From assembly GCA_046330185.1 (NCBI GenBank), contig JAXLTF010000005.1, positions 96,360-160,359 on the forward strand: 64,000 bases of DNA, given 5' to 3'. Shown in pieces: positions 2,298 to 26,582 of the stretch. The notes below the pieces were generated by a model. The model saw only the letters and a program-made list of their open reading frames with translations, ran no database searches and was not told the DNA's origin. Source of the DNA: Actinomycetota bacterium. GTDB lineage: Bacteria; Actinomycetota; UBA4738; HRBIN12. Each line of letters opens with the position of its first letter. The first letter of the stretch is position 1. The position numbers were made by a program, and so were the translations under genes.

Positions 2298-3183
2298 CTG
2301 GCTGCAGCCGATTGCTGACGCGATAGAGGACGGCGAAGAATACGAGCGCCATCGCGAGCAGCACGACCGCGATAGCGGTTCCCTCACCCCAATCCAGGGT
2401 CGTTTGAATCTTGTCCGCGATCAGCTCCCCAATCATCACGTCCCCAGCGCCGCCAAGGATGGACGGGAGGACGTAGTACCCCAAAGTGGCGATAAAGACG
2501 ATCGTGCAGCCGGCGGCGACTCCCGGCATGGTTAGCGGCAGGTAGACCTTTGCGAAGGCTACCGACGGTCGAGCCCCGAGCGTGGCGGCTGCATAGCGAA
2601 GGCGCTCATCGAAACGTCTCATGACGTCGTAGATGCTCAGGACCATCAGCGGTATCCCGTACTGAATCATTCCGATCACAACGCCCTGGATGTTGTGAAC
2701 GAGGGTTACCTGCCAACGTTCCAGACCCGCAGCGGACAAGGCGCTGTTGAGCACACCCTGTCGATCAAGGATCGTGAGCCAGGAGTAGCCGCGAACGACC
2801 ACGCTGATGAACAAGGATGCTGCTACGCAAGCAAGGATCAGCGTACGGATACGCCTGGACGACGTGGCGGCCACGTACGCGACGACATAGCCGACGATGA
2901 GCGAGATTGCCGTCACGAGGAAGGCAACCCACGCGCTCCTCGCGAGAATCGTGAGCTGGCCACGGGAACCAAGAAACGACCTGTAGTGGACCAAGCCTCC
3001 AGGTGGCTCCGTGAAGCTCCGTGTCAGTAGCGCGGCCGTCGGAAGAAGGAACAAGGCACCAATGAGGACCAGACTTGGGACCAAGAGCCACCCGATCGAC
3101 GAGCGTCGCCGCCGTGCCGGGTGCTTGTGGGGATCGACAGGTCCCCGAGAGCGAGAGTCGTTCCCGTTCAGCTCTCCAATCAC
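2281..3183 (-). CDS. ABC transporter permease (PotB-like)
   Basis: Multi-TM protein with EAA-like loop; GTG start at 3183 overlaps the substrate-binding protein stop TGA (GTGA). Confidence 0.7.
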   Translation of the reverse strand: MIGELNGNDSRSRGPVDPHKHPARRRRSSIGWLLVPSLVLIGALFLLPTAALLTRSFTEPPGGLVHYRSFLGSRGQLTILARSAWVAFLVTAISLIVGYVVAYVAATSSRRIRTLILACVAASLFISVVVRGYSWLTILDRQGVLNSALSAAGLERWQVTLVHNIQGVVIGMIQYGIPLMVLSIYDVMRRFDERLRYAAATLGARPSVAFAKVYLPLTMPGVAAGCTIVFIATLGYYVLPSILGGAGDVMIGELIADKIQTTLDWGEGTAIAVVLLAMALVFFAVLYRVSNRLQPGADGG

Positions 3184-4364
3184 GCTCCGACCCACTCGTA
3201 CCACGCATCCGAGACCGAGTTCAGGTTTGCCCCCCACCAGTCATCGTCGATCACGCCCACAGTCAGCCCGAGGTTGTCTGGGTTCGTGGACATGAGCGTC
3301 TTGGTCGTATCGTCAAGCAGGTCGTAGGCCTCCTGCGTCGGCGGAGCATTCAGGGACGCAGTTGCGTATGCGGCAAGTGCCTGAGGGTCGTAGCACGCCT
3401 TTATCCACTCGACGCAGAGCTCCGGCCGCGGCTGATTCTTCGAGATCAAGTGGTGGGTGATGATCTGCAAGTTCTGACCCCACTGCAAGCCCACCGGGAG
3501 GCCACCGGCTGCAAGGTATGCGATGCGGTTGTGCCACGCTTGGATGAAGTCAACCGTGCCGGCCACCAAGAACTGCTGCGACTCGGCACCAGAGTTCCAG
3601 AACACGAGGTCGTCGCGAATGGAATCGATCTTGTTGAACGCTCGATCGAGGTCCAAGGGATAGAGATCCTCGTACGCGACGCCATCGGCGATAAGTGCGA
3701 TCTCGACGGTGCCGTACGGCCAGTTGAAGAGCGACCGCTTCCCGGCGATCCCCTTCGTGTCGAAGAACTCGACCCAGTCTCGCGGAACCTTGGCGTCAGC
3801 ATCGGTCCGATGGCCGATTGCGTACGCGCTGTGGTACGAGATGAGTGCCTTCGGGAGGTATGCGTTCGCCACAGGGATGACGTCGCTCTCGGTGACGCCA
3901 ATCTCGTCATACGGAAGATCCTCAAGCAACTCGTCCTCGGCAAAGACGAACCAGCCCTCGGCGTCGATCCAGTTCCACGTAACGTCGTCGCTCTCAATCT
4001 GTGCCACGAACTTGCCGTAGTCGATGGCCGTGTTCTCGACAGGGACCCCCGTGTTCTCGGTGAACTGCGCTCCCCAAGTCTGGAGGCGCACGGTCGCCGT
4101 GTTGCCACCCCAGTCCGCCACGATGAATGGCTGAGACGTGTCGAAGCCGCTTGTCGCTCCGGATGGCCCGGATGCTGCCGTCGCACCAGTCGCACCGGTC
4201 GCGCCCGTCGTCGGCTCGCCACCTCCGTCGCTGCTGCAGGCAGCGAGGATCGCGCCGAGGAACGGGGTCGCGGCAACAGCCGCAGATTTCCCGAGGAACC
4301 CACGCCGAGAGATCCTGAGATCCTCGAGGTCATCCAGACTGTAGGGCTTCGACGGATCGGTCAT
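3180..4364 (-). CDS. ABC transporter periplasmic substrate-binding lipoprotein (PotD/PotF-like) with Tat signal
   Basis: Start at M23 gives MTDPSKPYSLDDLEDLRISRRGFLGKSAAVAA...LAACSS (twin-arginine motif plus lipobox); preceded by a GGAGGGGGAG ribosome-binding site; (TGA)n-encoding linker TGATGATGATAAS. Confidence 0.8.
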   Translation of the reverse strand: MTDPSKPYSLDDLEDLRISRRGFLGKSAAVAATPFLGAILAACSSDGGGEPTTGATGATGATAASGPSGATSGFDTSQPFIVADWGGNTATVRLQTWGAQFTENTGVPVENTAIDYGKFVAQIESDDVTWNWIDAEGWFVFAEDELLEDLPYDEIGVTESDVIPVANAYLPKALISYHSAYAIGHRTDADAKVPRDWVEFFDTKGIAGKRSLFNWPYGTVEIALIADGVAYEDLYPLDLDRAFNKIDSIRDDLVFWNSGAESQQFLVAGTVDFIQAWHNRIAYLAAGGLPVGLQWGQNLQIITHHLISKNQPRPELCVEWIKACYDPQALAAYATASLNAPPTQEAYDLLDDTTKTLMSTNPDNLGLTVGVIDDDWWGANLNSVSDAWYEWVGA

Positions 4365-5466: not shown

Positions 5467-6747
5467 TCACATCCCCGGCGTCGAGCCACCCTGCGACGAG
5501 TTCGGTCGCCTCGATCGATCTGGCTTGAAGGCCCCAGCGCGATCGACATTGAGGCCGACATGGCTGACGACCACGCCCTGGTTGTCGGGGTGGCCCGGCG
5601 CGTTCTGGACGTTAACTCGCATGATCCGGCCTACGAACTGGATGTACGGGCTCAACGACCGGAACGGGCGGAAGATGGCTGCGACGGAGAGCGGCGGATG
5701 ATCGAATCCTTCACCCAGCATCTGCACCTGCACGATCGCATCGATCCGACCGTTCGAGAGGTCGAGCAAGATGTCCTCGCGTTCGTTGGGCGGCATCCCC
5801 GAGTGAATCTCGCGAGCCTCAAGGCCCCGCTCCTGGAAGGAGCTCCGCACTTCACGCGCGTGATCCATCGAACAGGCCACCGCGATGAGCTGGTGCGGGG
5901 TCCCCGTCTCCCGGAGGTAGCTCAGCCACTGGATAGAGGCATCCGCGATCGAGACGTTGCATTCGCGCGCCAGAGCCACGCCGCGTGAGAACCAGTCCTC
6001 CTCGCGGAGTTCGAGGACTTCCTCGAGCGTGATGCTGCTCGTCGCCCTCGGTACGTGAAGTAGATCTCGGACGGCACGACGTTTACTGCTCGATGTCTCG
6101 ATGTAGCCACGCTGCATCGCGTCACGGAAGGGGGTACCGGTAGATCACCTCGCCCTCGACGGTCGATCGTCGGAACGGAACGGTGTCGCCGAGGCTGAGG
6201 ACACGCGCCTCAGGGAACCGATTGAACACATTCTGCCAGCTCGGTGCCGCGTTGTGATGACCTCAACCACAACGATCAGATCGAAGAACCCGTCCTCGAA
6301 CTCGGGCAACCACCGGTCCGCCCGCGCGGCCAGCTGGTGGATGTTCGTGACGACGACGTGCGCATCGTCACAGTCGGACAGGTTCGCGTCGGCGTCGAGA
6401 GACGCGACGAACGGCCCGTCGGTAAGGTCGGTGAGGGCCCCGACCTTCCGGTAGAAGCACCCCTGGCTCGTTACGTCGAGCGCATCGCGGAGTTGCCGCT
6501 TGATGGTGAGATTCGGGGCGATGACGAGGACACGGCCGCGGGCGATCCTGAACGGCAGCAGGGTAATCAACCCTGTCTTGCCGCACCCAACTGGGATCTG
6601 CTCGACTGCTCGATGGCCCCCGTCGCCGAAGTGTGCCCTGGCGGCCTCGTACCCCCCTACCTGGGGGATCCGAAGGTTGACATTGCCCGTGATCCGGACG
6701 GGGGCCTCGCTGAAGAATCGCGCGACCTGATCGTTGCTGAGCGCCAT
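5467..6747 (-). pseudogene. SF2 DEAD/DEAH-box helicase (type III restriction ResIII-like) split by a frameshift near 6117-6145
   Basis: N-terminal ORF (start M159 of track ORF 6145..7221) has Walker A VGCGKTG, VLVIAPNLT, HVVVTNIHQL and DLIVVVEV at the DExH position, then turns to junk. The C-terminal ORF 5467..6117 carries the helicase C domain (IHSGMPPNEREDILLDLSNG, QMLGEGFDHP, motif VI QFVGRIMR). The two ORFs are in different frames, 28 nt apart. Confidence 0.6.
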
Positions 6748-6949
6748 GCCTAACACGATACGCCGGGGCACCGACGCCAGCAGCAAACGGATCGTTGCTG
6801 CACTTCGTCCGCGTTCCCAAATCAGCCGATTCCGTTCCGAACGCCCCGGTCGCAAGCGTCTGACCTGGTCGAATGGGGTTGTCTGCAAGCCCCACTCCGG
6901 CGCGCCGGCGGCCGCCCGATGATAGCGGACGTCCTCTGGTCCCCCGTCC

Positions 6950-7423
6950 GTGGGACCATCAGCACGGATGCGCCGGATGCTCGCGCTCGTGATGCTCGCC
7001 TCGCTGGCGGCCTGCGGTGGAGATGAGCCGTCGACGCCGTCGACCGCGCCGGACCATATCGTCCGGTTCCCCGGAGCCGGGACCGCGCTCCACGTCCGCG
7101 TATCCGACTCGGATGCGGAGCGGGCGCAAGGCCTGATGGGTGTGAACGACCTCCCCTCCGACGAGGGCATGGCGTTCGTGTGGGAGGAGCCGGTCGAGAG
7201 CACCTTCTGGATGAAGGACACCCCGATCCCCTTGTCGATCGCGTTCGTTGGCGCCGATGACCGGATCGTGACGATCGCGGAGATGGCGCCGTGCCGATCG
7301 GACCCGTGCCCGACGTACGCGGCGGACGCGCCGTTCGTGCTGGCGATCGAGGCGAACCGGGGCTTCTACGCCGACGCCGGCATCGGTGAGGGCGATCGGG
7401 CGCTCCTGGAGACGGCCTCGTGA
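6950..7423 (+). CDS. DUF192 domain lipoprotein
   Basis: Signal plus lipobox MLASLAACGG; DUF192-like blocks RAQGLMG, GMAFVWEE, FWMKDTPIPLSIAFV, PC..DPCPTY, FVLAIEANRG. Confidence 0.65.
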   Translation: MGPSARMRRMLALVMLASLAACGGDEPSTPSTAPDHIVRFPGAGTALHVRVSDSDAERAQGLMGVNDLPSDEGMAFVWEEPVESTFWMKDTPIPLSIAFVGADDRIVTIAEMAPCRSDPCPTYAADAPFVLAIEANRGFYADAGIGEGDRALLETAS

Positions 7424-7734: not shown

Positions 7735-7768
7735 CGTCCCGAGGACGTCACGGTCACGTGGCGATCCG

Positions 7769-8098
7769 GTGACGGGCCTTCCCCCCGGGAGGCTCCGGGG
7801 CGATGCTCGGCGCGTGGACGCGACGATGAGCCTCGCGATGGCCTTGATCGGCGCCGGCGCCGTCGTTGCGGGTGCCGTCGGGTTCGTGCTGCCGGTCCGG
7901 GAGCGACTGGCGGGCACCGTGCTCGCGCTCGTGGCCGGCGCCGGCGCCGGCGTGGCCGCGCTCGCCATCGGGTGGAACGGACTCGACCCCATGGACGGCG
8001 CCGCCTGGGAGCGCGCCTTCTTGATCGCGTCGGCGGTCGGCTTCGCGGCGGTCGTCGCTTGCCTGGCGATCGCCTGGCGGCGTCGCGACCGGAGCTGA
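7769..8098 (+). CDS. hypothetical membrane protein (true start may be the internal Met near 7823)
   Basis: Three hydrophobic helices (AMALIGAGAVVAGAVGFVL, VLALVAGAGAGVAALAIGW, FLIASAVGFAAVVACLAIAW). Confidence 0.4.
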   Translation: MTGLPPGRLRGDARRVDATMSLAMALIGAGAVVAGAVGFVLPVRERLAGTVLALVAGAGAGVAALAIGWNGLDPMDGAAWERAFLIASAVGFAAVVACLAIAWRRRDRS

Positions 8099-8129
8099 GG
8101 GCCCGGTCTATCCTTCCCGCATCGACCGT

Positions 8130-9260
8130 CGAGAGACGCCGACCTCCCTGCCGTCGTGATCAGCGCCGGCCAAGCCGGCCTGGCGACGAGCCACGAGCTC
8201 TCCGCCGCCGGGGTCGATCACGTGGTGCTGGAACGCGACCGGGTGGGCTCATCCTGGGGCCGGCCTGTGGGACAGCTTCCGGATCAACACGCCGAACTGG
8301 CCCATCCGGCTGCCGGGCGCCACCCGACGACGACGAACCCGACGGCTTCCTGAGCCGGGCGGAGATCGTCGATCACCTCGAGCGGTACGTCGCGCGGTGA
8401 TGCCGAGGTCCGCCGAGGCGTGGATGTCTCTTCCTGGAGCCCGCTCGCGACGGGTTCGTCCTGGACTTCTCCGACGGACCGCTGAGGACCCGGGCGGTCG
8501 CCGTCTGCACCGGCGCGTACCAAGCGGCCTACATGCCACTGGCGCCGATGCTCTCCGCGGCTGGACCTCCCGGTGCTCGACACGCGCGCCTACCGGAACC
8601 CGATCCCTGCCCGACGGAAGGGTGCTGATCATCGGGAGCGGGCAGTCCGGCCCCCAGATCGCCGAGGACCTGGTCGGCGCCGGCCGCGACGTGATCGTGT
8701 CGTGCGGCAAGGCCCCGTGGGGCCCTCGACGGATCCGGGACCAGGACGTCGTGTGGTGGGCGATCGAGACGGGGTTCCTCGCTCAGACGGCGGCGGAGCT
8801 CCCATCTCCGGTCGCGCGTCTGACCGCGAACATCACCGCGAGCGGCGTCGACGGCGGCCTCGACCTCCATCTGCGGACGCCTGGGACCAGTGTCGCGCTC
8901 GCGGGCCACCTCGTCGCGGTGGATGGGACCCGGGTGCGCTTCGCGGACGATCATGCAGGAGAGCGTCGCCTGGGGCGACGCCCGGTACCTGGATCTCCGC
9001 AGGGACGTGATCGCGCTCTGTGACGGGCGGCGGCTCCCGGTGCCGCCCTGCCGTTCGACGATCAAGGGTTCCCCCGGCAAGTCAACGGTGCCAGCAGCAC
9101 GGCGCCTGGTCTGCTCTTCGTCGGCACGCACTTCCTCCGCAAGCGTCAGTCCTCGCTGCTCTACGGCGTCGGGGAGACGCGGCGATCGTGGCACGCGGGG
9201 TCGCCGGATCGGCCCCGCGGGGGTGCATCGCGCCGGTCGAGGCGCAGCGCGGGGCCGCTC
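8130..9260 (+). pseudogene. flavin-containing monooxygenase (CzcO/ArsO-like NAD(P)/FAD oxidoreductase) disrupted by multiple frameshifts
   Basis: Family motifs are spread over all three + frames: [28 protein letters not shown]; [19 protein letters not shown]; [17 protein letters not shown]; AVCTGAYQAAYMPLAP; VLIIGSGQSGPQIAEDLVGAGRDVIVS; GLLFVGTHFLRKRQSSLLYGVGE; GVGRDAAIVARGVAG. Confidence 0.6.
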
Positions 9261-10556
9261 GGCCCCGACGCCGCGCCGCCGCGGACCTTGCCGGCGACCG
9301 GGAGCGCTCCAAGATCACGACCGCCGTCCTTTCATGCGGACGCCTGGCGTACCCGTCCAGGCGTTCCGGGTCTCGCGCCAACGCTGCCACAACCGCTCGC
9401 GCTCCCCCACTTCGCGGCTCGGCCGAGAACCTCGCGCCGCACCCCGCCGGCGAGCTCCACGCACGCCGCCGGGTTGGCCTGCAGGTTCAGCCACCAGGCA
9501 GGCTCCGCGCGCCCCAGCTGCCATCGCCATCGAGACCAGGTTCGGTCCGTCCTCGTAGTAGCCCACGATCACGCTACGCGGCTCACCGCTGCGCTGACCG
9601 GTCGTCGTGAGTCGCAAGGCCCCACTCCTGCCCTGGACGTAGGTGTCACAGGCCCCTGCGTGTCCCTTGGTCGCCCGCACGAGCCTCCGGTGGACGCCAG
9701 AACGACACCATGAACCACCGCGGCGGCAGGCGACCCTTGCCCGTGTCTCTCACCGTGGTCGCATCCCTCATCTCGCTCACCTCGTTCCACCTCACCGAGA
9801 TCGTTCCATGGCTGGCCCGCTCGCCCCAGGGTCTCCTGTCCCACCCGGCCCGGGTCACCCGGGCATCCCACGTCGGTTCACCGCGGGATCGAGCCCGCCT
9901 CCGCCCGGGCGCCGCTCACGATCCGGAAGGCGATCGGTTCGGGCGCGACGGGACCCTGATCGAACGTCTCTGCGCCCGAGAGCCCTCCTCCCCTCCCGCA
10001 CGTGTCTCGGGAGGATGACCTCACGCGCACTTCATGTTATGGTTCGTGCATGAAGTGTTACTTCAGTCGGGGCTCGGATGGATCGAGCCGAGGCCACCTG
10101 GGAGGTGGACGCATGCATGGGATGACGGCCCAGGCGTATCGGTGGGGCTACGGCCGCTTCGGCGGACGGAGCGAACGGCCCGTCGCGGGACGCCCGCGGC
10201 TCCGGCCCGCCGCCGGTCGAACGAGCGCCCGCCCGTGATCTCGGGGGCGGGATCGATGGTCCCGGATCTCGGAGTTGCTCGCGGTCGGGCGCTCCGGCCC
10301 GCTGGGTGGTCGGGGACCCCGAGCTGAGTGGTCGCACGAGTGGGGGTGGAGGATCAGATGGCGAAGTTCGAAGGAAGGGTAGGGCCCGGCGGCGCGGCAC
10401 GGTATCGGACGCCGTCGCCTCGTGGCGACCGGCCCGCTCATGGCGACCGGCGGCCGCCGATGCCCGCGTTCCCCGCATCGCCCCGGCAGGCGCTCCGACG
10501 CTGCCGGCCATCAAGCCGAAGGCTGCCTGAGCGCGGGTTCCGCGGCCCGACGTGGA

Positions 10557-10591
10557 GGCTGCGTCAGGGCTCGATGCATCTTCGAGCCCTG
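10557..10591. other. GC-rich hairpin (14-bp perfect stem GCGTCAGGGCTCGA / TCGAGCCCTGACGC, about 7-nt loop) 36 nt upstream of the regulator gene
   Basis: Read directly from the sequence; no downstream T-tract. Confidence 0.4.
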
Positions 10592-10627
10592 ACGCGCTCG
10601 ACGGTGAGCGGGCGACCGTCCCTATAG

Positions 10628-11896
10628 TTGCCCGACATGGCTCGCCCCAGCACCGGCCTGCGCCCCATCGACGACCTGATCGGCGGCGTGCGGGTCGGTG
10701 ACAACCTGGTGTTCTCCACCAGCCAAGATGTCCCGGTGGACGGGTTCGTCTCGGCCTTCATCCGCGCGTCGGCAGAGGCAGCCGGCCTGGCCTACGTGAG
10801 CTCGCACGTGGCGCCGAGCGCCGTGCTCGAGCGTTTCGCCGAGGATTGGGGCACCGCTCCTACCGTCCTGGTCGACTGCTACACGGATGGCCTGGGAGGC
10901 TCCGACCCCGCGTTCGAACGCTTCTACCGATCGAGGCGGACCCGAGGTGGCCCCCGGGTGCACCGCATGCGCGACGTCGCTGACCCCGAGGGTGTGCGCA
11001 CGTCGATGGCCGGGCTCGAGGACGAGCTGGGACCGAACACGCGATACGTGTTCGACAGCTTGACCGGCCTGCAGGAGATGTGGGGAACGCACGAGGCGCT
11101 GTCGTTCTTCCTCAGGTCGTGCCCGCGGCTGTACGAGCTGCGCACGGTCGCGCTGTGGCTCGTCGACCACGGGGCGCACGATCGATCGTTCCTGTCGCGA
11201 CTCGCGCGGGTGACGCAGGTCCTGGTCCGCATCGAGGCCGACGACGAGGGCATGGCGCTGCGTGTGATCAAGGCCGAGGGGCGTCCCCCGGGGGTCACCG
11301 GCAGGCGCGCGCACATCCGGTTCGAGGACGGCGGGGCCAGCCTCATCCGCGAGGAGGGACCCGGGACCAAGGAGAGGGTCGGCGCGGCCCTGCGTGAGAG
11401 CCGCCGGGCGCGCGGGCTCTCCCAGGCCGAGCTGGCGCGCCGCATCGGCATCAGCCCGAGCGCGCTCTCGCAGGCGGAGCGAGGCGCGGCGGGCCTGTCG
11501 GGGACCACCCTGACCCGCGCCTGGCAGGAGCTCGGCACCCCGTTCGGGGAAGCGGTCCTCCCGCTGACCTCCTCCTACCGGGTGGCCCGACGTGGCGCCA
11601 GGCCCACCCGTGCGATCGGTCCAGGCGTCGCGGCGGAGGAGATCGCCGACGGTTCGGGGTCCGCGGGCGTGCACCTGGTGCGGTTCGCGCCGGGGGCGGC
11701 TGGGCGCAGGGCGCCCTTCGCCACCAAACGCGGGGAGGTCATCTTCGTCACGTCGGGGGTCCTCGAGCTTCGGATCGGCGAGGGCACGGAGACCCTGCAG
11801 GCCGGGGACGCCGTCGAGGTCGCGACGGAGACGATCACCGGTTGGAGGAACCTCGCGCCGGTCGAGACGGTCGCGGTCTGGACGATCCTCCCGTGA
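10628..11896 (+). CDS. three-domain regulator: N-terminal KaiC/RecA-like domain (no P-loop), central XRE-type HTH, C-terminal cupin
   Basis: N-terminus LRPIDDLIGGVRVGDNLVFSTSQDV resembles KaiC/RadA G.P.LD.LLGGGLP but lacks GxxxxGKT; HTH LRESRRARGLSQAELARRIGISPSALSQAERG; cupin-like C-terminus GEVIFVTSGVLELRIGEGTETLQAGDAVEV. Confidence 0.65.
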   Translation: MPDMARPSTGLRPIDDLIGGVRVGDNLVFSTSQDVPVDGFVSAFIRASAEAAGLAYVSSHVAPSAVLERFAEDWGTAPTVLVDCYTDGLGGSDPAFERFYRSRRTRGGPRVHRMRDVADPEGVRTSMAGLEDELGPNTRYVFDSLTGLQEMWGTHEALSFFLRSCPRLYELRTVALWLVDHGAHDRSFLSRLARVTQVLVRIEADDEGMALRVIKAEGRPPGVTGRRAHIRFEDGGASLIREEGPGTKERVGAALRESRRARGLSQAELARRIGISPSALSQAERGAAGLSGTTLTRAWQELGTPFGEAVLPLTSSYRVARRGARPTRAIGPGVAAEEIADGSGSAGVHLVRFAPGAAGRRAPFATKRGEVIFVTSGVLELRIGEGTETLQAGDAVEVATETITGWRNLAPVETVAVWTILP

Positions 11897-11935: not shown

Positions 11936-13561
11936 CTATCCGAGACGCCGCGGAGCATTCCTCCATCTCGAGTCCCGCTCGATCTGACGGAAGCAGTTCG
12001 CCGCAGGTATCCCGCTGACCCCGCCCCCCGCGTGCGTGGCCGAGCTCGCGTGGTAGAGGCCGCGGATGGGCGTCCGGTAGTCCGCGTAACCGGGAGCCGG
12101 ACGCATGTGGAAGAGCTGATCGGGCGTGAGCTCGCCATGGAAGATGTTGCCGCCGACGAGCCCGAGCTCCTCCTGCATGTCCCAGGGACCGACGACCTGT
12201 CGCGCGATGACCGACCCCTTGAACCCCGGAGCGATCTGGTCGTAGCCATCGATCACCCGATCCGCGAAGGCCTCGAGCTCGTCGGTGTGACGTTCCTCGG
12301 CCCAGGATAGGGGGGCCCACTGGGCGAACATCGACATGATGTGGACGCCCTCAGGAGCCATCGTGCGGTCCCCCCATGTGGGGATCACACCGTCGCAGAA
12401 GGGATGCTCGGCCCCACGTCCCTCGCGAGCGTCCTGGAACGCCCGTTCGATGTAGGCGGGCGAGAAGCCCAGGGCCGAGGACGCCATGTGGTGCTCCTGC
12501 AGGTGGGAGCCGGGATCGGCCCTGTAGCTCGGGAGCTTCGAGATGGCGCAGTTCACCTTGACGACACCCGATCGCGTTCGCCAGCGCTCGACGTCGCGCA
12601 CGAAGTCCGCCGGCAGCTCGGTTCGCTCCAGGAGCTCGAGGAAGGCGATCTTCGGGTGGATGCACGTGACGACCACCGGAGCGGATATCTCCTCGCCCGT
12701 GTGGAGCGCAACACCCGTCGCTCGCCCGTCCCGCGTGAGGATCCTGCCGACCCGTGCCTCGACCCGGACCTCCGCCCCGAACGCCTCCGCGGCACGGCGG
12801 CACGCGTCGGAAACCGCCCCCATGCCCCCCTCGGGGAAGCTGAAGCCGCAGATCTCGCCGGCCACGTCGCCGATCGCGTGGTGCAGCATCACGTACGCGG
12901 TCCCCGGCTCCGCCGGCCCGGCCCAGGTGCCGATGACGCTGTTGAGGGCCAGCATGCCCTTGACCTGCTCCGACTCGAACCACTCGTCGAGCAGATCGAT
13001 CGCGCTCATGGTGAAGAGCCTGGTGACGTCGGCCACGCCGCGCACCCCGAGCCCACGCAGCTTCCACGCCGTTCGCGCGGTCTCCACCAGATCGCCCGGC
13101 GCGAGGGAGCCGAGCCTCGGCGGGACCGCTCGTTGGAGTGGGCCGAGGACCGCGGCCACCCCGCCCAGCCAGGCCTCCCACTCACCCATCGTTTCGGCAT
13201 CCCGCTTCGAGAACCTGGCGATCGATGCCCGGCTCTTCGCGGCGTCGTTCGCGTACACCTTCACCGAGCTGCCGTCGGGGTACGCCTGATAGAAGAGGTC
13301 GAAGCCCGACGCCCTGTAGCCGTGCCGCTCGAGGTCGAGGGCGCGGATGATGGCGAGCGGCATCATCAGCATCGCGTAGGAGTACGTCGACACCCTGAAG
13401 TCGGGGTGCTCCGGCCATGGGCTGCTGGTGTCGGCCGCGCCTCCCACCTTGGACCTGGCCTCCAGCACCACCGTTCGCCGCCCGGTCCTCGCGAGGAACG
13501 CACCGGCGATCAGGCCGTTGTGGCCGGCGCCGATCACGATCGCGTCGTACCCGACCGTCAT
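11936..13561 (-). CDS. CrtI / phytoene-desaturase-family FAD-dependent oxidoreductase
   Basis: Start at internal Met gives MTVGYDAIVIGAGHNGLIAGAFLARTGRRTVVLEARSKVGG (FAD dinucleotide fold); about 540 aa; 22 nt downstream of the mttB-family gene; the upstream track ORF extension is R/P-rich junk. Confidence 0.7.
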   Translation of the reverse strand: MTVGYDAIVIGAGHNGLIAGAFLARTGRRTVVLEARSKVGGAADTSSPWPEHPDFRVSTYSYAMLMMPLAIIRALDLERHGYRASGFDLFYQAYPDGSSVKVYANDAAKSRASIARFSKRDAETMGEWEAWLGGVAAVLGPLQRAVPPRLGSLAPGDLVETARTAWKLRGLGVRGVADVTRLFTMSAIDLLDEWFESEQVKGMLALNSVIGTWAGPAEPGTAYVMLHHAIGDVAGEICGFSFPEGGMGAVSDACRRAAEAFGAEVRVEARVGRILTRDGRATGVALHTGEEISAPVVVTCIHPKIAFLELLERTELPADFVRDVERWRTRSGVVKVNCAISKLPSYRADPGSHLQEHHMASSALGFSPAYIERAFQDAREGRGAEHPFCDGVIPTWGDRTMAPEGVHIMSMFAQWAPLSWAEERHTDELEAFADRVIDGYDQIAPGFKGSVIARQVVGPWDMQEELGLVGGNIFHGELTPDQLFHMRPAPGYADYRTPIRGLYHASSATHAGGGVSGIPAANCFRQIERDSRWRNAPRRLG

Positions 13562-13583
13562 CAGCGGGCCGGCGACCGCCCGA

Positions 13584-15023
13584 TCATCGATCGACCGCGA
13601 CGGGCGCGGCACGGCGAGCATCGACGACGTCGCGCATCCCCGACAACACGTCCTCGGGCAACGGCTCCACGGCGTGCGATCCCCAGACCTCGAAGACCTT
13701 GGCCCGCGCCCGATCCCCGAGCGTGGTCGAGCCATCGGCCGACCACGACATCCTCGACCCCCAGCTGATCACGGACGGGAGCCAGAGCTCTCGGAAGCGC
13801 TCGCGCGTGTGACGCTCCCCCAGGAACTGCCCTCCGGGCCCGACCGCACGGATGGTGTCGAGGGCGATCGCCTCGTCGCTGACGTCGAACGGCGTGACCG
13901 CGACCCTGACCATGTCCGCGACCTCGTCGGCGATCACCAACAGCTCGGGCGAGAAGAGCAGGCCGCCCTCGATGCAGCCGGCATCGAAGACCAGATCCGC
14001 TCCCGCGAGGGTCGCGCCGAGCCCGTAGTAGGCAGCCTCCAGCGCCGCCTGCTCATCGAGCAGCTTGGAGTCGCCCCCGAAGCTCACGCCGACGGAGGGG
14101 AGCCCCCAGCGACGGCAGAGCTGTCCCATCGCCACCGTGAACCTGAACCCGTCGGGACCCCCCGTCGTGACGTTCCCGCTCCGCATGTCCATCAGGAACG
14201 GCACCGTGCCGCTGATGAACGGAACCCCGGGGGACCTGAGCTGCGCGAGCACCAGGCCCATGAGCGTCTCCGCCGCTGAGATCACGAGGGTCCCGGCGAT
14301 CGTCGCCGGCCCGGTCGCGCCCACCTGCGGTGCCGCCTGGCAGCACACCGGGAGTCCCCGGTCGGCCGCCACGAACACCTTGTCCACCGTCTCGGGATTG
14401 AACACGAGCGGCGAGACGGAGTTCAGGTAGGGCACGACGAACGGCCGCTCGCGCAGGGCGTCGCGGCCCCCCGCCACGAGCTCGGCCATGTCGTAGATGT
14501 CCCGGAGCTCCGTGCCCCCGGCGATCAGGACCATCAGCGGCTTGGTCGTGTTCGTGACCATCTCCACGAACTCGCACTGGTTCACGATGTGGATCGGCAG
14601 CTCCTCGGAGGGGCGGGTCACGCCCGGGGTCGCGACGAAGTCGATGTGGGCGAGCGCATCGGCCAGACGCGTGGACTCGCCCGTGGCCCGGAGGCTGAAG
14701 TCCTCCACCTCGCCCGTGCGAGGATCGAGGTAGTTGAGGTTCGTGACGCCCATCCCGACGTAGACGTTGCCCTCACCAAGTCGCAGCGCGGGCCCGCCGT
14801 TCCGATCGAAGATCGAGAACCGGGACGGCGCCGACGCCAGCGCTCGTTCGACCAGATCGGGCGACAGGCGGACGATCTCCCCTTCGAGGGTCGACCCGTG
14901 GTCGGCGAGGAGCTCCCGTCCCTCCCGGGACATGATCCGAACGCCCACCTCGGACAGGACCACGATCGCGGCCGCATGCAGTCGCTCCAGGGCATCGTTC
15001 GACAGGAGCTCCAGCGTCGTCAC
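13584..15023 (-). CDS. MttB-superfamily (trimethylamine methyltransferase family) corrinoid-dependent methyltransferase, non-pyrrolysine type
   Basis: From a GTG near 15023: TTLELLSNDALERLHAAAIVVLSEVGVRI..., with family-length ~479 aa and TIM-barrel-like conserved blocks; no in-frame amber codon; first 162 aa of the track ORF are R/P/S-rich junk. Confidence 0.75.
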   Translation of the reverse strand: MTTLELLSNDALERLHAAAIVVLSEVGVRIMSREGRELLADHGSTLEGEIVRLSPDLVERALASAPSRFSIFDRNGGPALRLGEGNVYVGMGVTNLNYLDPRTGEVEDFSLRATGESTRLADALAHIDFVATPGVTRPSEELPIHIVNQCEFVEMVTNTTKPLMVLIAGGTELRDIYDMAELVAGGRDALRERPFVVPYLNSVSPLVFNPETVDKVFVAADRGLPVCCQAAPQVGATGPATIAGTLVISAAETLMGLVLAQLRSPGVPFISGTVPFLMDMRSGNVTTGGPDGFRFTVAMGQLCRRWGLPSVGVSFGGDSKLLDEQAALEAAYYGLGATLAGADLVFDAGCIEGGLLFSPELLVIADEVADMVRVAVTPFDVSDEAIALDTIRAVGPGGQFLGERHTRERFRELWLPSVISWGSRMSWSADGSTTLGDRARAKVFEVWGSHAVEPLPEDVLSGMRDVVDARRAAPVAVDR

Positions 15024-15128
15024 GCCCGGATGCTGCGTCGAAGCCGGGCGGTCCCGGCAGGGACCAATGGCCCTGTGGAGGGGGGACCGATGGACCCTAC
15101 CGCGGAGGCGGAGCGGGCCACAGGGTCG

Positions 15129-15158
15129 CTTCCGCGGCGCCGGCTTCCGCGGCGCCGG
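15129..15158. repeat. perfect 15-bp tandem duplication CTTCCGCGGCGCCGG x2 in the divergent mttB / corrinoid-protein intergenic region
   Basis: Read from the sequence (..gcttccgcggcgccggcttccgcggcgccggcg..). Confidence 0.5.
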
Positions 15159-15180
15159 CGACCGCCGATAGGACACGAGT

Positions 15181-15855
15181 GTGGACGACGACGAGCTGTT
15201 CAAGGCGATGACCCGGAGCATCCTCGACGGGGAAGCCGAGGTCGCGGCCGAGCTCGCTCGTCGATCCCTGGACGAGGGGATCGACCCCCTCGAGGCCATC
15301 GACCGAGGCTTCCTGCCGGGCGTGACGGAGGTCGGTGACGACTTCGGGGCGGGTCTCGCGTTCCTTCCCGAGCTCGTGATGGCGGGGGCGGCGATGAAGG
15401 CGGCGATCGCCGTCCTCGAACCGGAGATGATCGCCCGAGGGACCTCGCGGGAGCGGTTCGGAACCGTGGTGCTCGCGACGGTCCGGGGCGACGTCCACGA
15501 TATCGGCAAGAGCCTGGTCGGGACGATCCTGACGGCTCACGGGTTCCGGGTGGTCGACCTCGGCGTCGACGTGGCGCCCGAAGCCATCGTCGACGCGGTC
15601 CGCAGCGAAGGGGCCGACATCGTCGGGCTGTCTTCGCTCCTGACGACGACGATGCCCGCGCAGGCGGAGACGATCCGCGCCCTGGAGGCCGCCGGACTCC
15701 GCTCGCGCGTGAAGGTCCTGGTCGGCGGCGCGCCCGTCACGCTCGGATGGGCCCAAGAGGTGGGAGCGGACGCGTACGGCGAGGACGCGTCGGTCGCGGT
15801 CGCCACCGCTCGCCGCCTGCTGAGGCCCGGCGAGGGAACCGACCCGGCAACCTGA
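15181..15855 (+). CDS. corrinoid (B12-binding) protein, MtbC/MttC-like
   Basis: N-terminal helical cap followed by a B12-binding Rossmann domain with the DVHDIGK motif (TVRGDVHDIGKSLVGTIL); 224 aa; divergent from the MttB-family gene. Confidence 0.85.
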   Translation: MDDDELFKAMTRSILDGEAEVAAELARRSLDEGIDPLEAIDRGFLPGVTEVGDDFGAGLAFLPELVMAGAAMKAAIAVLEPEMIARGTSRERFGTVVLATVRGDVHDIGKSLVGTILTAHGFRVVDLGVDVAPEAIVDAVRSEGADIVGLSSLLTTTMPAQAETIRALEAAGLRSRVKVLVGGAPVTLGWAQEVGADAYGEDASVAVATARRLLRPGEGTDPAT

Positions 15856-21370: not shown

Positions 21371-22429
21371 TCAGTCCCATCGAGGCCACTCCTGACGACG
21401 CCTGACCGGACCCGCCGGCCGCAGTCGTTCCACCCGGTCGATGTGTGCCTGGCCTTCCTGCTGCTCCAATATGTGAATCGTCGGCGGGGCTGGCACCAGG
21501 CTAGCAACGCGGTGCTTCTGCTTCTTCGCCAAGGTTCTCACGCGCTGAACCGCGGCCACTGAGGGACCGTAGATCGCCCACTCGGCCGAGGCGTAGGTGC
21601 GAAGGTTGATCTCCTCGACGTCACCCTGATCAGCTTCAGCGTGACGAAGGTCAGGGGGACCGGGCGAAGCGACCAGTGCGCACGTGCGGTCGAGGGGGCA
21701 GGTCGCCACCGTCTCCGGGGAGGACAACCAGCCAGCCCCGTATCCAGGCGCCGCCTGCGGATCATGGATCAGGATCGGGTGATCGGAGACGACGAAGTCG
21801 AGATCCGACGGAGCGTGGAGGATCACCCAGCTCATCTGAGCTGCGATGCGCGGAACCACCCCCTCAGCGAACATGAACATCGCAGCGACCGCGTGGTCGT
21901 GGCTGGCCTTGAGGATGAGTTCTCCCGAGTCCAGATGGTTCGCCCAGACGCGCCCGCGACGCTCGGCTTCCTCGAGCGAGAGCTCCTCCCCCTGCAACCG
22001 ATGAAGCTCCTGCACCTCCCGCGGGTCGAGGAGCCGTCTCATCGCATCAAGCGTGTACGCCTGCTCGAAGGCGTACGTGAACCACTGTCGCCCTCGGGGT
22101 GTGCGGTGGTACTGGAGATAGAGGAACAGCGCCATGGCCATCCTCTGGGTCTGATCGAGTGCACGACCCTCCACGAGGTTCGCGACGACCGAGGCAGCTT
22201 CGTCCTCGACGAGAGCAAGGGTGTGCTCGGCGAACTCCTGTGGCACACCTTCCATCTCTCGCAGGTCGTTGTAACCAGCGATCGCCGCTTCCCCTCGGAC
22301 GCCCCGCACCGAGCATTTGCCCGTGCCCTTGTCGAGATGGTGCAGGCGCGGGTTCTCAGCATCGGGCTCGGCGGAGAAGCGGCGAAGAAGGAAGCGCGGA
22401 ACGAAATGGTGGAGCTTCGGCTTCGTCAT
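21371..22429 (-). CDS. DUF4238-family protein
   Basis: N-terminal hallmark MTKPKLHHFVPRFLLRRF (HHYVPqFyL-type motif of DUF4238); 352 aa. Confidence 0.6.
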   Translation of the reverse strand: MTKPKLHHFVPRFLLRRFSAEPDAENPRLHHLDKGTGKCSVRGVRGEAAIAGYNDLREMEGVPQEFAEHTLALVEDEAASVVANLVEGRALDQTQRMAMALFLYLQYHRTPRGRQWFTYAFEQAYTLDAMRRLLDPREVQELHRLQGEELSLEEAERRGRVWANHLDSGELILKASHDHAVAAMFMFAEGVVPRIAAQMSWVILHAPSDLDFVVSDHPILIHDPQAAPGYGAGWLSSPETVATCPLDRTCALVASPGPPDLRHAEADQGDVEEINLRTYASAEWAIYGPSVAAVQRVRTLAKKQKHRVASLVPAPPTIHILEQQEGQAHIDRVERLRPAGPVRRRQEWPRWD

Positions 22430-22480
22430 TCGCCGCCGCTCCGCTCGTTTCGGCTGGGCCAGCTGGAGTCCGAGCGTCCG

Positions 22481-22726
22481 CTAGTGCTCCTTGTCACGTG
22501 GAGGGTTCGGATCGTGGGCCGGCGGAATCGTGTCGGCACTCCGGATTCGGCCATCCCGGCCGTGTGTCAGGATCTCGCCCCCACCGCTCCCCCGTAGGAT
22601 CTCGCGGGCGCGCCGATCGGCTTCGGCCTGGGTTTCGCCTCTGGCGCTCGCACGGGATGCGCCCTCGCGCTGCGCTTTCCATCCTTCCCCATCCTTCGTC
22701 ACGTGGATCCGCTTTCGGTTCGTCAT
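22481..22726 (-). CDS. DUF2188-family small protein
   Basis: 81 aa; HVTKDGEGWKAQREGASRASARGETQAEADRRAREILRGSGGGEILTHGRDGRIRSADTIPPAHDPNPP follows the DUF2188 pattern; immediately upstream and co-oriented with the DUF4238 gene. Confidence 0.55.
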   Translation of the reverse strand: MTNRKRIHVTKDGEGWKAQREGASRASARGETQAEADRRAREILRGSGGGEILTHGRDGRIRSADTIPPAHDPNPPRDKEH

Positions 22727-22729
22727 TTG

Positions 22730-22898
22730 GATCCTCCTCGAACTGATGTTCGAGTATGAGCCTCAGCTCTTGCTCGCGTCAAGGGCGGACCAGGACAGTG
22801 GCAGTCCGTTAGACCTGTCAGGAGGTATTTAGTGGACTTTGGGTATCTGCTATCTTCTATCCGCGAACTCCCTCCACGGATGAACTAGAGGACTCTGG
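22730..22898. promoter_or_regulatory. AT-rich (about 50% GC) divergent promoter region between the DUF2188 gene and abiEi, with GGATG..CTAGAG direct repeats
   Basis: Marked GC drop relative to ~70% flanks; repeats GGATGAACTAGAG (22878-22890) and GGATGTCATCTAGAG (22897-22911), the second spanning the abiEi ATG. Confidence 0.4.
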
Positions 22899-23708
22899 AT
22901 GTCATCTAGAGCTGGGATCGGATCGAAGGGTCGAGCGGAGCTCGCGGCCGTGCTGGCCGGGGGCCGCCGGTTCGTCACGCCCTCCGACGTCGCGGAAGCG
23001 CTCAACATCGACCGCGACGACGCCACCAAGCGTCTCGCCCGATGGGCCACAGACGGATGGCTCAGACGAGCCCGTCGTGGTCTGTACATCCCGGTTCCCC
23101 TAGACGCCGAGAACCCGGCCACGTGGTCGGAGGATGCCCTCGTCGTCGCGGAGGCCATCTGGTCACCCTGCTACTTCACGGGATGGACCGCCGCCAACCA
23201 TTGGGCACTCACCGAGCAGGTGTTCCGGACGACCGTCTTGAAGACCGCGAACCGGGTGCGATCCAGTTCCACGACGGTCTTGGGACACGACTACCTCGTC
23301 CACCACGTCGATCCAGCAGTGATGGCCTGGGGGCTGAAGTCGCTGTGGAAGAGTGAACTGCGGCTGCGTGTCGCAGATCCTGCCCGAACGGTGATCGACA
23401 TCCTTGACGCACCAGGCCTGGCTGGCGGCATCCGTCATGCAGCTGAGATCCTACGGGCCTACCTCGACGATCACGATTCAGCGCTCCTGATCGAGTACGG
23501 AGAACGCCTCGGGAACAGGGCCACGTTCAAGCGCCTCGGGTATCTCGTTGAGACGTTGGACGACAACGACCGACTTGTATCCGAGTGTCTGGCCCGCATC
23601 TCCACGGGGATTTCGGTCTTGGACCCCGATGGCCCGAAGACCGGGCGGCGCGTGATGCGCTGGAACCTCCTCGTGAATGCGCAGCTGGAACCAGGTGACT
23701 CCTCGTGA
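22899..23708 (+). CDS. abiEi: AbiEi-family antitoxin / transcriptional regulator (type IV TA, COG5340-like)
   Basis: N-terminal wHTH (ELAAVLAGGRRFVTPSDVAEALNI...RRGLYIP) plus C-terminal AbiEi domain; directly followed by the AbiEii gene with a GTGA overlap. Confidence 0.8.
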   Translation: MSSRAGIGSKGRAELAAVLAGGRRFVTPSDVAEALNIDRDDATKRLARWATDGWLRRARRGLYIPVPLDAENPATWSEDALVVAEAIWSPCYFTGWTAANHWALTEQVFRTTVLKTANRVRSSSTTVLGHDYLVHHVDPAVMAWGLKSLWKSELRLRVADPARTVIDILDAPGLAGGIRHAAEILRAYLDDHDSALLIEYGERLGNRATFKRLGYLVETLDDNDRLVSECLARISTGISVLDPDGPKTGRRVMRWNLLVNAQLEPGDSS

Positions 23709-24883
23709 TCTCCGCCCGCGAGGTCTTGGACCTCCGAGCGGAGTGGTCACTCGCAGTCGATGTCATCGAGAAGGACTACATGCTCGGGTGGCTGCTCGCC
23801 GGCATCGCCCAGGAACCGCAGCTGCGTGAGGCGTGGGTGTTCAAGGGCGGCACGTGTCTACGTAAGTGCTACTACGAGACGTACCGGTTCTCAGAGGACC
23901 TCGACTTCACGGTGCGAGCCGGTGGCCCCGAGACTCCCGAGGAACTTAAGCCACTCTTCGTGGGTATCGCGGCGTGGCTCGAGGAGGAGGCGGGAATCGA
24001 ACTCGTGGTCGAAGGCTCCTCCTTCAGACGACGCCGGAATCGGAGGGGGAACGAGACGACTCTTGGGCGCCTTGCGTACCGAGGGCCTAACCGCCCTCCG
24101 CAGCTCCCGAAGGTGAAGCTCGATATCACCTCAGACGAACGCCTGGTCCAGGAGACTGTCAGCCGTCAGATCGGACATCACTACAGTGACGCGCCGCTCC
24201 CCATCGAAGAGGTCGCCTGCTACTCGCTCGTGGAGTTGTTCGCCGAGAAGCTGAGGGCGCTTCAAGAGCGGTGTCGACCACGTGACTTGTACGACGTCGT
24301 GCACATGCACCGGCATCCCGATCTCGCCGGTGAGGCGCCAGCGGTTGCCACGGTACTGGCAGAGAAGTGCGCGTTCGTGGGCATCGACGTCCCCACTGCC
24401 GAGTCCATCCGCTCATCTCCCTACCGAGATGAGATCGAGACGGAGTGGGAGAACATGCTGGGGCATCAGCTCCCGAGACCCTTGCCTCCGTTCTCTGACT
24501 TCTGGGATGTCCTTGACGATGTCTTCGGCTGGCTCACGGGTACGGGTGCGCGCACCGTGCCGGCTCGGATCGAGAGGGAGGACCTGGATCCCACCTGGGT
24601 CGCTCCCAAAGCCATCTCCTCTTGGCGAGCTGGGTTCCCTCTGGAACTCATCCGCTACGCGGGAGCGAACCGACTCAAGGTGGACTTGGACTACCGCGCC
24701 GAGGACGGACGGTGGGGCGTCCGCCGGGTGGAGCCATACTCCCTCAGACGCACGAAGGATGGATACCTGCTGCTGTTCGTGGTGAATGATCGGGGGCAGA
24801 TTCGCGGCTACCGAGTCGATCGCATAGCCGGGGCTCAGGTGACGGGAGAGCGGTTCACCCCTCGCTACTTCGTCGAGTTCTAG
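23705..24883 (+). CDS. abiEii: AbiEii/AbiGii-family nucleotidyltransferase toxin (DUF1814) with a ~100-aa WYL-like C-terminal extension
   Basis: Hallmark FKGGTCLRKCYYETYRFSEDLDF; 392 aa versus ~290 typical; C-terminus EPYSLRRTKDGYLLLFVVNDRGQIRGYRVDRIAGAQVTGERF resembles a WYL ligand-sensing domain. Confidence 0.8.
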   Translation: MISAREVLDLRAEWSLAVDVIEKDYMLGWLLAGIAQEPQLREAWVFKGGTCLRKCYYETYRFSEDLDFTVRAGGPETPEELKPLFVGIAAWLEEEAGIELVVEGSSFRRRRNRRGNETTLGRLAYRGPNRPPQLPKVKLDITSDERLVQETVSRQIGHHYSDAPLPIEEVACYSLVELFAEKLRALQERCRPRDLYDVVHMHRHPDLAGEAPAVATVLAEKCAFVGIDVPTAESIRSSPYRDEIETEWENMLGHQLPRPLPPFSDFWDVLDDVFGWLTGTGARTVPARIEREDLDPTWVAPKAISSWRAGFPLELIRYAGANRLKVDLDYRAEDGRWGVRRVEPYSLRRTKDGYLLLFVVNDRGQIRGYRVDRIAGAQVTGERFTPRYFVEF

Positions 24884-24996
24884 ACTAACGACTCCCCGAT
24901 GGGAGCAGTCCCCTGGGCACCAAGCGCACCTTCACCACCTTTCCCTACCGCACCGAGTTCCCGGACTCCTCAGAGCGAGGGCGGAACTCGAAGACG

Positions 24997-25899: not shown

Positions 25900-25900
25900 A

Positions 25901-26560
25901 TCAGGTTGTCTGCGCCACGATCGTGTTCTCTGGCGGAACCTTCCAGTAGGCGAACTTCCGAAGCTCGATCCGCCGCTCCCAGGAAGGGGAAGTCACGAGG
26001 AAGGTCGCGACGCCGGCGGGTGCCCGCTGCAACCGGTCCAGGTCGGTCTGTAGCTTCTTATTGCCGTCGTGGGCAGAAACGACATCACTCACCTCGAACC
26101 AGGCCTCGCCCTTGTCGCCATCGGTTCGGAGGTCTGAGGGACCTGGAACACCGCTGGTCGTAGGATTGCACTCGAGCACGCGGCTCGCCCAGCCGTTCTC
26201 GATCGCCCATCCGAGCGCGTCGAGGAGTCGTTCGACCGTGGCGCAGATGTTCAACAACTCCATTATCGGATGCTGCTCGCTGGCAACCAGCGGATGAAGG
26301 TTGGATAGGTCCACCGGAGTTCGCTTCCCTTGGATGCCCCAAGCGGGCCCGGCCACGTCATGCGTCCAGCTGATCGCTCGATCGACGATCGCGTCGTGAG
26401 CACCCTGAAGCTGGACCAAGTACTGTCCCGCCTCCAGAGGCCCGTCTTCCGCCATTAGCGGCTTGATCAGGTGCTTCTGAGTCGCCATTCCTTCGATACC
26501 TCCCTGCTCGGCTGTGCCGCCAACCGTCGCTCCAAGGTCCACCTGCGCAACAGGCTCCAT
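25901..26560 (-). CDS. hypothetical protein (219 aa)
   Basis: ORF with balanced composition, directly downstream of the EEP gene on the same strand. Confidence 0.4.
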   Translation of the reverse strand: MEPVAQVDLGATVGGTAEQGGIEGMATQKHLIKPLMAEDGPLEAGQYLVQLQGAHDAIVDRAISWTHDVAGPAWGIQGKRTPVDLSNLHPLVASEQHPIMELLNICATVERLLDALGWAIENGWASRVLECNPTTSGVPGPSDLRTDGDKGEAWFEVSDVVSAHDGNKKLQTDLDRLQRAPAGVATFLVTSPSWERRIELRKFAYWKVPPENTIVAQTT

Positions 26561-26582
26561 CGTCGGCTAGCGACCCAACACT

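Follow-up and report, generated by a model that had tools for sequence, protein, structure and literature searches.

What an MttB-family methyltransferase demethylates in an aerobic actinobacterium, and why a flavoprotein gene should follow it closely on the same strand, are the questions raised by a locus at positions 11936-15855 of a 64,000-nucleotide stretch of DNA (the window) from an Actinomycetota bacterium (assembly GCA_046330185.1, contig JAXLTF010000005.1, positions 96,360 to 160,359). The locus is intact and of a known type: it encodes a non-pyrrolysine MttB-family enzyme, from an uncharacterised clade, with its corrinoid protein, and carries a lineage-specific accessory gene. The explanation favoured here, with moderate confidence, is that the locus forms the corrinoid demethylation module of an aerobic actinobacterium, and that the accessory flavoprotein, a relative of human PYROXD2, is probably co-transcribed with mttB and likely to act in N-methyl-amine metabolism. 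Two nuo clusters and the heme A and heme O synthases encoded in the window indicate that the host respires aerobically.

Organisation of the locus

Three genes make up the locus, and all three were found intact at the coordinates first assigned to them. The mttB gene (13584-15023, minus strand) starts with GTG and encodes a corrinoid-dependent methyltransferase of 479 amino acids. The corrinoid gene (15181-15855, plus strand) encodes a B12-binding protein of the cognate type, 224 amino acids in length, whose His-on motif DVHDIGK lies at nucleotides 15490-15510; it diverges from mttB across a control region of 157 bp (15024-15180). The gene for the FAD-dependent oxidoreductase (11936-13561, minus strand; 541 amino acids) is separated from the mttB stop codon by 22 nucleotides (13562-13583), as read from the sequence. 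The window MttB and oxidoreductase are 100% identical to P0001, named 'trimethylamine methyltransferase family protein' by NCBI, and to P0121, respectively, both on one contig of an Actinomycetota metagenome-assembled genome (MAG). Gene identities, folds, motifs, synteny statistics and the PYROXD2 homology were computed or compared directly; the substrate class, the co-transcription and any coupling of the two enzymes are inferences.

The 22-nucleotide same-strand spacing downstream of mttB, noted in the original prediction, was confirmed with the ATG at 13561, and this start is backed by the N-termini of homologues (MANTYDAIVIGGGHNGL). The PGAP call for the flavoprotein (P0121) is 558 amino acids long, begins 17 codons further upstream and overlaps mttB; under either start the two genes are tightly co-directional. 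No terminator-like site was identified between them, sigma-70 and terminator scans being uninformative in DNA of 70% GC, and since a terminator would not fit into a spacer of 22 nucleotides, co-transcription of the two genes is probable.

The methyltransferase and its relatives

MttB matches the Pfam family PF06253 over profile positions 27-497 of 500 (471 positions; E=9.5e-91, 304.7 bits against a cut-off of 25). Its AlphaFold2 model (pLDDT 77, pTM 0.81) resembles the structures 2qne, 9yce, 7xcl/7xcn and 4yyc in Foldseek, with TM scores of 0.81-0.84 (about 0.82) over some 478 columns, and the protein is predicted to be a TIM barrel with a C-terminal extension like that of the solved MttB and MtgB. 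Identity is 27% to MtgB from Desulfitobacterium hafniense (DhMtgB), 29% to MttB from Methanosarcina barkeri and 26% to 4yyc from S. meliloti. Phylogenetic placement, proposed as a check in the original prediction, grouped MttB with neither the pyrrolysine enzyme nor any characterised clade: in a neighbour-joining tree its clade is monophyletic and stands apart from the pair formed by MtgB and 4yyc and from MttB of M. barkeri. A HMMER search of 1.84 billion cluster representatives recovered its own cluster, then P0241 at 55% identity, with the next full-length relative at no more than 38%; the same search placed 7,264 representatives in the superfamily at E<=0.001. By sequence comparison, the window MttB belongs to a sharply isolated actinobacterial clade, outside every characterised clade and neither MtgB nor pyrrolysine MttB. 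Literature searches retrieved no paper on actinobacterial MttB homologues. The MttB superfamily thus comprises thousands of sequence clusters, for which, to our knowledge, only a handful of substrates are known.

Loci encoding MttB relatives were obtained from a genome scan (27 loci, mostly from Actinomycetota MAGs, three with other phylum labels) and from exact-protein look-ups (5 loci). Genes of the dimethylglycine dehydrogenase (DMGDH) type, with the domain order DAO-FAO_M-GCV_T, are present in 8 of 29 MttB-relative loci, and are directly operonic with mttB in L004/L020 (DMGDH-DMGDH-PAS-MBL-mttB, MBL being a metallo-beta-lactamase), in L022 and in L024, the last with an 18-nt gap. A Rieske oxygenase with GbcA as its best NCBIfam match is found in five loci, and a lysA-like decarboxylase in three. 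At locus L012, whose MttB is 83% identical to that of the window, a 655-amino-acid flavoenzyme of the OYE/FadH family (1908-3875) overlaps the mttB stop codon, which suggests translational coupling; in NCBIfam it comes nearest to 'mycofactocin system FadH/OYE family oxidoreductase 2', with 582 bits where the cut-off is 793. A membrane-protein gene lies downstream of mttB in L034 (MttB 84% identical), so that the enzyme adjoining mttB differs between lineages. Because relatives are operonic with tetrahydrofolate-dependent N-methyl dehydrogenases of the DMGDH/sarcosine dehydrogenase type, the module most likely carries out the initial step in a series of three N-demethylations, and the clade as a whole appears, from its gene neighbourhoods, to be tied to the stepwise N-demethylation of a methylated amine.

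A pair of genes for a PAS protein (136 amino acids) and a protein of the metallo-beta-lactamase fold (280 amino acids) occurs in eight loci of MttB relatives at 63-73% identity (L004/L020, at 8707-9959; L022, L032, L021, L025, L027, L028 and L038). At several of these loci the pair is located directly upstream of mttB in the same operon. None of the eight has a corrinoid gene nearby.

In the mechanism proposed for the module, a methylated amine, most likely a trimethylammonium compound, would bind in the MttB barrel, and the divergently encoded corrinoid protein, of the His-on type, would attack one methyl group with its Co(I) and take it up. A methyltransferase whose gene lies outside the window would then unload methyl-Co(III) onto tetrahydrofolate (THF) or homocysteine, while occasional oxidation to Co(II) would be repaired by an activator encoded elsewhere; the methyl-transfer, unloading and reactivation steps are drawn from knowledge of the family. 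The tertiary-amine product would finally be oxidised by a flavoenzyme, which is of the DMGDH type in relatives and may be the PYROXD2-like protein here.

The substrate pocket of MttB

In MtgB, Y97 and F356 contact glycine betaine by cation-pi interactions, and R312 and H348 contact its carboxylate; R312 is conserved in all characterised non-pyrrolysine members, and the R312L and H348E variants are inactive (PMC13080624). The corresponding columns were read in three independent alignments and in 120 homologues of the window MttB at 62-100% identity. In place of Y97, R312, H348 and F356 the window MttB has T94, V311, D347 and G354; depending on the aligner, the first column falls on V93 or M91 and the third on F346, in a segment that holds no basic residue. 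Across all 120 sequences the clade either keeps these residues unchanged or varies them conservatively, the R312 column being occupied by V in 83, L in 36 and I in one. The loss of the arginine is robust, because its column belongs to a segment that aligns without gaps between the anchors GLP and D[SA]K, and another residue, for example the clade-specific R294, may compensate for it. Many uncharacterised superfamily members likewise have no arginine at this column, so the window clade is one of many orphan clades rather than a unique oddity.

These replacements bear directly on the possibility that MttB is a plain actinobacterial MtgB, converting glycine betaine to dimethylglycine for DMGDH-type enzymes, as in Desulfitobacterium or Ruegeria. 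The likeness to that system (D. hafniense DSY3156/3155, PDB 2QNE/9YCE; aerobic MtgBCD of Ruegeria pomeroyi) extends to the fold (TM 0.82), to the two-gene logic of a non-pyrrolysine MttB-family enzyme with a small DxHxxG corrinoid protein, and to relatives that adjoin genes for dimethylglycine and sarcosine oxidation, with DMGDH-like, sarcosine-dehydrogenase-like and GbcA-like genes on their flanks. The corrinoid protein has MtgC as its second-best NCBIfam match, in a near-tie with TIGR02370, and aerobic bacteria, as the window host is, do use MtgB, MtgC and MtgD for glycine betaine (PMC12478193). Even so, the identification is considered unlikely: the window clade forms a deep separate branch, identity to DhMtgB is only 27%, and all four glycine-betaine contacts are replaced across the 120 sequences, by T/V, V/L/I, D and G, including the two whose substitution inactivates MtgB (PMC13080624) and which 4yyc of S. 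meliloti retains.

The substrate of MttB is probably a trimethylammonium compound, for which glycine betaine is the default but unproven guess. The quaternary amines named in the original prediction, glycine betaine, proline betaine, carnitine and gamma-butyrobetaine, hold by analogy and not as an assignment, since the MtgB contacts are missing and the clade is uncharacterised. With its invariant and atypical pocket, which combines the absence of Arg and His with an Asp and with Gly at the pyrrolysine site, this aerobic actinobacterial clade is a target in the search for a new methyl-donor specificity; if true, such a specificity would concern oxic soils and sediments.

Among the nearest other superfamily clusters (representatives P0245-P0389), most combine an aromatic residue at the R312 column with Cys where pyrrolysine would align and His at the position of H348. 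Judged from these alignment columns, they form a large uncharacterised set with a pocket signature unlike that of every characterised member.

The flavoprotein and the PYROXD2 family

The flavoprotein aligns collinearly with mouse PYROXD2 (P0493) from residues 5-532 against residues 35-579, with 36% identity (342 bits, E=3e-115). The identity of the query was confirmed against entries from primates and mouse that bear the name PYROXD2: the sequence used for this check shares 96-98% identity with the primate entries and has Gly426 and Val498, in agreement with PMC8777681; the comparison itself used the database mouse protein. The blocks YDA[IV]VIGAGHNGL, D.WFESE..K, GYV.LHH and GGNIFH...DQL..RP are shared with PYROXD2, while the window protein lacks a mitochondrial presequence. 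A second group, from soil bacteria, is about 44% identical both to PYROXD2 and to the window flavoprotein, whereas the clade of the window flavoprotein is 34-38% identical to PYROXD2. On these identities, the window flavoprotein appears to belong to an actinobacterial sister subfamily within the PYROXD2 family.

PYROXD2 is a mitochondrial disease gene and has for more than ten years been among the strongest genes for human metabolite quantitative trait loci (QTLs). The protein itself has no known reaction (PMC8777681). Variants at the human PYROXD2 locus are strong QTLs for urinary trimethylamine and plasma dimethylamine (PMC3169529) and are associated with N6-methyl-lysine (PMC9763692), so that PYROXD2, like the window flavoprotein, is tied to N-methylated amines by association only. 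Literature searches retrieved no characterised member of the flavoprotein subfamily, and no paper tying PYROXD2 to glycine betaine, sarcosine or choline. Membership in this family makes the locus more interesting than the label 'CrtI-like oxidoreductase' would imply: if the association holds, bacterial PYROXD2-family members would supply soluble, expressible proteins and a short list of candidate substrates for testing PYROXD2 function.

The pairing of mttB with the flavoprotein gene

The two genes were found side by side in none of about 30 mttB loci, none of 80 metagenome loci of flavoprotein relatives and none of 16 further orthologue loci (L005-L011, L121-L129). With none among about 120 related loci, the adjacency is lineage-specific, and the pairing is as atypical as had originally been claimed. 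At 66-74% identity, orthologues of the flavoprotein gene are located in a block with genes for an acyl-CoA dehydrogenase (ACAD), a TetR regulator and an ADP-forming acyl-CoA (ACD) ligase, often accompanied by a PLC-type (PF04185) phosphoesterase (L005, L008, L121-L124, L126, L129). Methylamine genes, for choline, dimethylglycine and sarcosine catabolism, lie no more than 8 kb upstream of the flavoprotein gene in four of six long orthologue loci and differ in make-up between lineages. They consist of DMGDH and ETF in L005; aldehyde dehydrogenase, GcvT-like, DMGDH, ETF and serine-dehydratase-type PALP genes in L121; SoxGADB, IclR and PALP in L124; and GMC oxidoreductase and aldehyde dehydrogenase genes (betA/betB-like) with a permease gene in L008. 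The lysA-like decarboxylase of L011, where the flavoprotein is 81% identical, shares 43% identity with that of the mttB loci L004 and L032. No methylamine-type neighbours were identified among 76 more distant flavoprotein relatives; the neighbours of those at 41-46% identity (GlgB, adenosine deaminase, TonB receptor, Nramp, XdhC) offer no functional hint. No wider synteny of the window with the flavoprotein-orthologue loci was found, identities being 32-46% for the ABC transporter and 33% for the amidohydrolase.

The orthologue block often continues with a second flavoprotein paralogue (about 41% identical), followed by an amidase.

Flavoenzymes are also found directly beside mttB in orthologous loci, the OYE/FadH-family enzyme downstream in L012 and DMGDH-type enzymes adjacent or upstream in L024, L022 and L004. 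Together with the flavoprotein orthologues near methylamine genes, they lend indirect support to the original suggestion that the flavoprotein oxidises the demethylated product. By analogy with these neighbourhoods, there is moderate, associative support for the view that the flavoprotein subfamily works in or beside the catabolism of choline, betaine and N-methyl-amines, and the window protein most likely belongs to the same metabolic area, where it would oxidise an N-methylated amine or a CoA-activated derivative. The narrower idea that the flavoprotein uses what this one MttB releases is put forward tentatively and falls somewhat short of probable. A more specific proposal, in which the flavoprotein would be a dedicated second-step FAD dehydrogenase or oxidase for the tertiary amine released by a non-glycine-betaine MttB clade with an Asp pocket devoid of Arg and His, is a long shot; trimethyllysine and trimethylaminovalerate (lysine- or aminovalerate-derived betaines), gamma-butyrobetaine and choline would be its candidate substrates. 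If true, it would reveal the biochemical function of the PYROXD2 family and explain the human PYROXD2 links to trimethylamine, dimethylamine and N6-methyl-lysine.

A chance juxtaposition would account for a pairing that is unique among the related loci. A rearrangement would in this case have put an unrelated PYROXD2-family gene behind mttB, and the flavoprotein would serve the CoA pathway represented by the acyl-CoA dehydrogenase and ADP-forming ligase, with which its orthologues keep their block, and would have no part in the methyltransferase reaction or in the use of methylated amines. Farther out in the family, the neighbours are unrelated housekeeping genes, and the window region bears marks of flux: the stretch at 8-10.6 kb lacks a clean open reading frame (ORF), frameshifts affect several genes, and a probable low-GC defence island is located at 21-29 kb. 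Such an origin is nevertheless judged unlikely. A same-strand spacing of 22 nucleotides normally means co-expression, an amine-oxidising flavoenzyme adjoins mttB in orthologous loci, and the ACAD-TetR-flavoprotein-ACD block itself adjoins DMGDH and ETF, SoxBDAG or betA/betB-like genes in four of the six long loci.

Several observations weigh against the favoured explanation of a demethylation module with an amine-oxidising accessory flavoprotein. The adjacency is seen only in this window, and the nearest relatives on both sides do not have it (L034, with MttB at 84% identity; L011, with the flavoprotein at 81%, in a TetR-SDR context). The TetR and ADP-forming acyl-CoA ligase partners of the orthologues are missing at the window locus, a hint that the substrate is linked to CoA and is not a free amine, and the conservation of orthologue neighbourhoods may partly reflect inherited synteny and not independent evidence. 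With R312 and H348 missing from the aligned MttB clade, glycine betaine does not appear secure as the substrate; no partner methyltransferase or activator is encoded within the 64 kb; and, for the trimethylamine signal at the human HPS1/PYROXD2 locus, one study prefers HPS1, which adjoins PYROXD2, as the causal gene (PMC9286311).

Corrinoid protein and methyl-transfer partners

The corrinoid protein proved to be intact and divergently encoded, as originally described. Both B12-binding domains were identified (B12-binding_2, E=2.7e-18; B12-binding, E=8.8e-30), the DVHDIGK motif is located at residues 104-110, and the DVHDIG, SSLLTTT and VGG elements are present in the translation. The protein scores 202.6 bits against TIGR02370, narrowly under the cut-off of 215.3, 202.3 bits against MtgC (NF047995, cut-off 310) and 191.9 bits against MtbC (cut-off 350), and is 36% identical to the B12 domain of MetH. 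The divergent arrangement with mttB was found only in the subclade with at least 79% MttB identity (the window; L001/2/3/13; L012; L034).

No methylcorrinoid:THF methyltransferase or RamA-type activator had been noticed in the window, and this negative observation stood up to further searches. About 55 ORFs spanning the 64 kb were scanned against Pfam and yielded no Pterin_bind, RACo or DUF1638 domain, and tblastn with the four E. coli MetH domains matched nothing in the window but the corrinoid gene. No MetH pterin-binding domain was detected by tblastn in the window or in related loci, a search of limited sensitivity for remote MtgA-type proteins. Unlike the known MtgB/MtgC pairs, the pair in the window thus has no MtgA, MtgD or RamA nearby. 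The sole candidate for a methyl-acceptor module near any clade member is a weak MetH-like homocysteine-binding match in L026 (18817-19740; 25% identity, E=3.7e-5), about 8 kb from the MttB relative.

The absence of a dedicated methyl-acceptor gene at the locus and the MetH-like domain in L026 would both be consistent with a split methionine-synthase-type system, in which the corrinoid protein would serve mainly methionine synthesis and MttB would be one of several methyl donors; a dual-function MtgC is known from aerobic Ruegeria pomeroyi (PMC12478193). This arrangement is quite improbable, as the match is a single weak one in one locus, and the strict pairing of the corrinoid gene with mttB in the close subclade suggests a dedicated partner.

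Carotenoid and pyrrolysine alternatives

The initial description of the flavoprotein as phytoene-desaturase-family or CrtI-like is tenable at the level of the superfamily only. The protein shares with CrtI and CrtO the superfamily fold and the N-terminal FAD-binding motif (GxGxxG at residues 10-15), and the CrtO model (NF045689) is its best NCBIfam match and aligns over the full length, but the score of 250.2 bits is far under the cut-off of 1000, as is the 87.2 bits for crtI_fam (TIGR02734) under 238.1. Its best sequence match in the PDB, the CrtI structure 4dgk, reaches 47.5 bits against 342 for PYROXD2. Among PDB structures, Foldseek ranks carotenoid desaturases first, at 17% identity, with nicotine, putrescine and monoamine oxidases after them. 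No crtB, crtE or crtY gene is located within 15 kb of the flavoprotein gene, and the genes for polyprenyl synthases (42.9-44.1 kb and 60.3-61.3 kb) are grouped with nuo, menaquinone and heme genes. For the product of the downstream gene, a role in carotenoid metabolism that has nothing to do with amines, whether as CrtI desaturase or as CrtO ketolase, is therefore very improbable.

The sequence refutes the reading of MttB as a pyrrolysine-dependent enzyme for trimethylamine whose amber codon had been missed, in spite of the fold shared with MttB/MttC of M. barkeri (PDB 7XCL/7XCN), which is the top PDB profile match (251 bits for the clade profile, against 237 for MtgB), and of the active-site motifs GxGV...Y.D, GLPS and AG..E.G..FS.E, which align with it ungapped: the mttB frame is open from 15509 to 13584 without an internal stop and hence holds no amber codon, and the pyrrolysine column corresponds to Gly316, with Gly in 120 of 120 clade members. 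The score of 330.2 bits against the pyrrolysine-type equivalog TIGR02369 (cut-off 525), the identity of 29%, a host that is an aerobic actinobacterium and not a methanogen, and the absence of pyl genes from those seen in the window all point the same way, and MttB is a non-pyrrolysine member of its family, as first proposed.

Control region and neighbouring regulator

Imperfect palindromes with the pattern CAGGGCC-N3/4-GGCCCTG stand in tandem at 15058-15075 and 15082-15099, just 5' of the mttB start. They are kept in all four loci with the divergent corrinoid-mttB pair (the window, L034, L001 and L012), and probably form the putative operator of some regulator. A perfect tandem repeat of 15 nucleotides (GCTTCCGCGGCGCCG, twice) at 15128-15157, 24 nucleotides 5' of the corrinoid gene start, is missing from the three related loci and is thus an insertion specific to the window genome. 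The region upstream of mttB gave no Rfam match at gathering score or E<=1, and its consensus RNA fold is weak and without covariation; the idea of a riboswitch or structured leader there was therefore discarded.

A gene for a regulator with XRE-type HTH and cupin domains (10628-11896, plus strand; HTH_3 E=7e-11, Cupin_2 E=5.5e-6) is convergent with the flavoprotein gene. No homologue of it was found in any related locus. The regulator is a neighbour of the methyltransferase system and would be at most a putative member of it. Its N-terminal part of about 240 amino acids has no Pfam or NCBIfam match.

Remainder of the window

The GC content of the window ranges from 61 to 74%. The Pfam scans identified an ABC transporter at 0.3-4.4 kb, together with an Amidohydro_3 gene, a sigma factor gene and a geranylgeranyl-reductase-like gene. 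A region of about 2.8 kb at 7750-10620 (72% GC) contains only overlapping ORF fragments without Pfam match, some of which resemble genes of the flavin monooxygenase and DUF385 types; it probably consists of decayed or frameshifted genes. A helicase at 5467-7365 is split into ResIII and Helicase_C ORFs, and the heme A/heme O synthase frame (COX15 and UbiA) at 60947-63188 is broken into three frames. These breaks suggest assembly indel errors or pseudogenes, by which the three main genes are unaffected.

A region of lower GC content (63-64%) at 21371-29700 encodes a DUF4238 protein, an AbiEi/AbiEii(+WYL) toxin-antitoxin pair, a HTH_17 protein and several ORFs without Pfam match. It ends near a tRNA gene at 28661-28742 (minus strand), and probably represents a mobile element or defence island that has become integrated.

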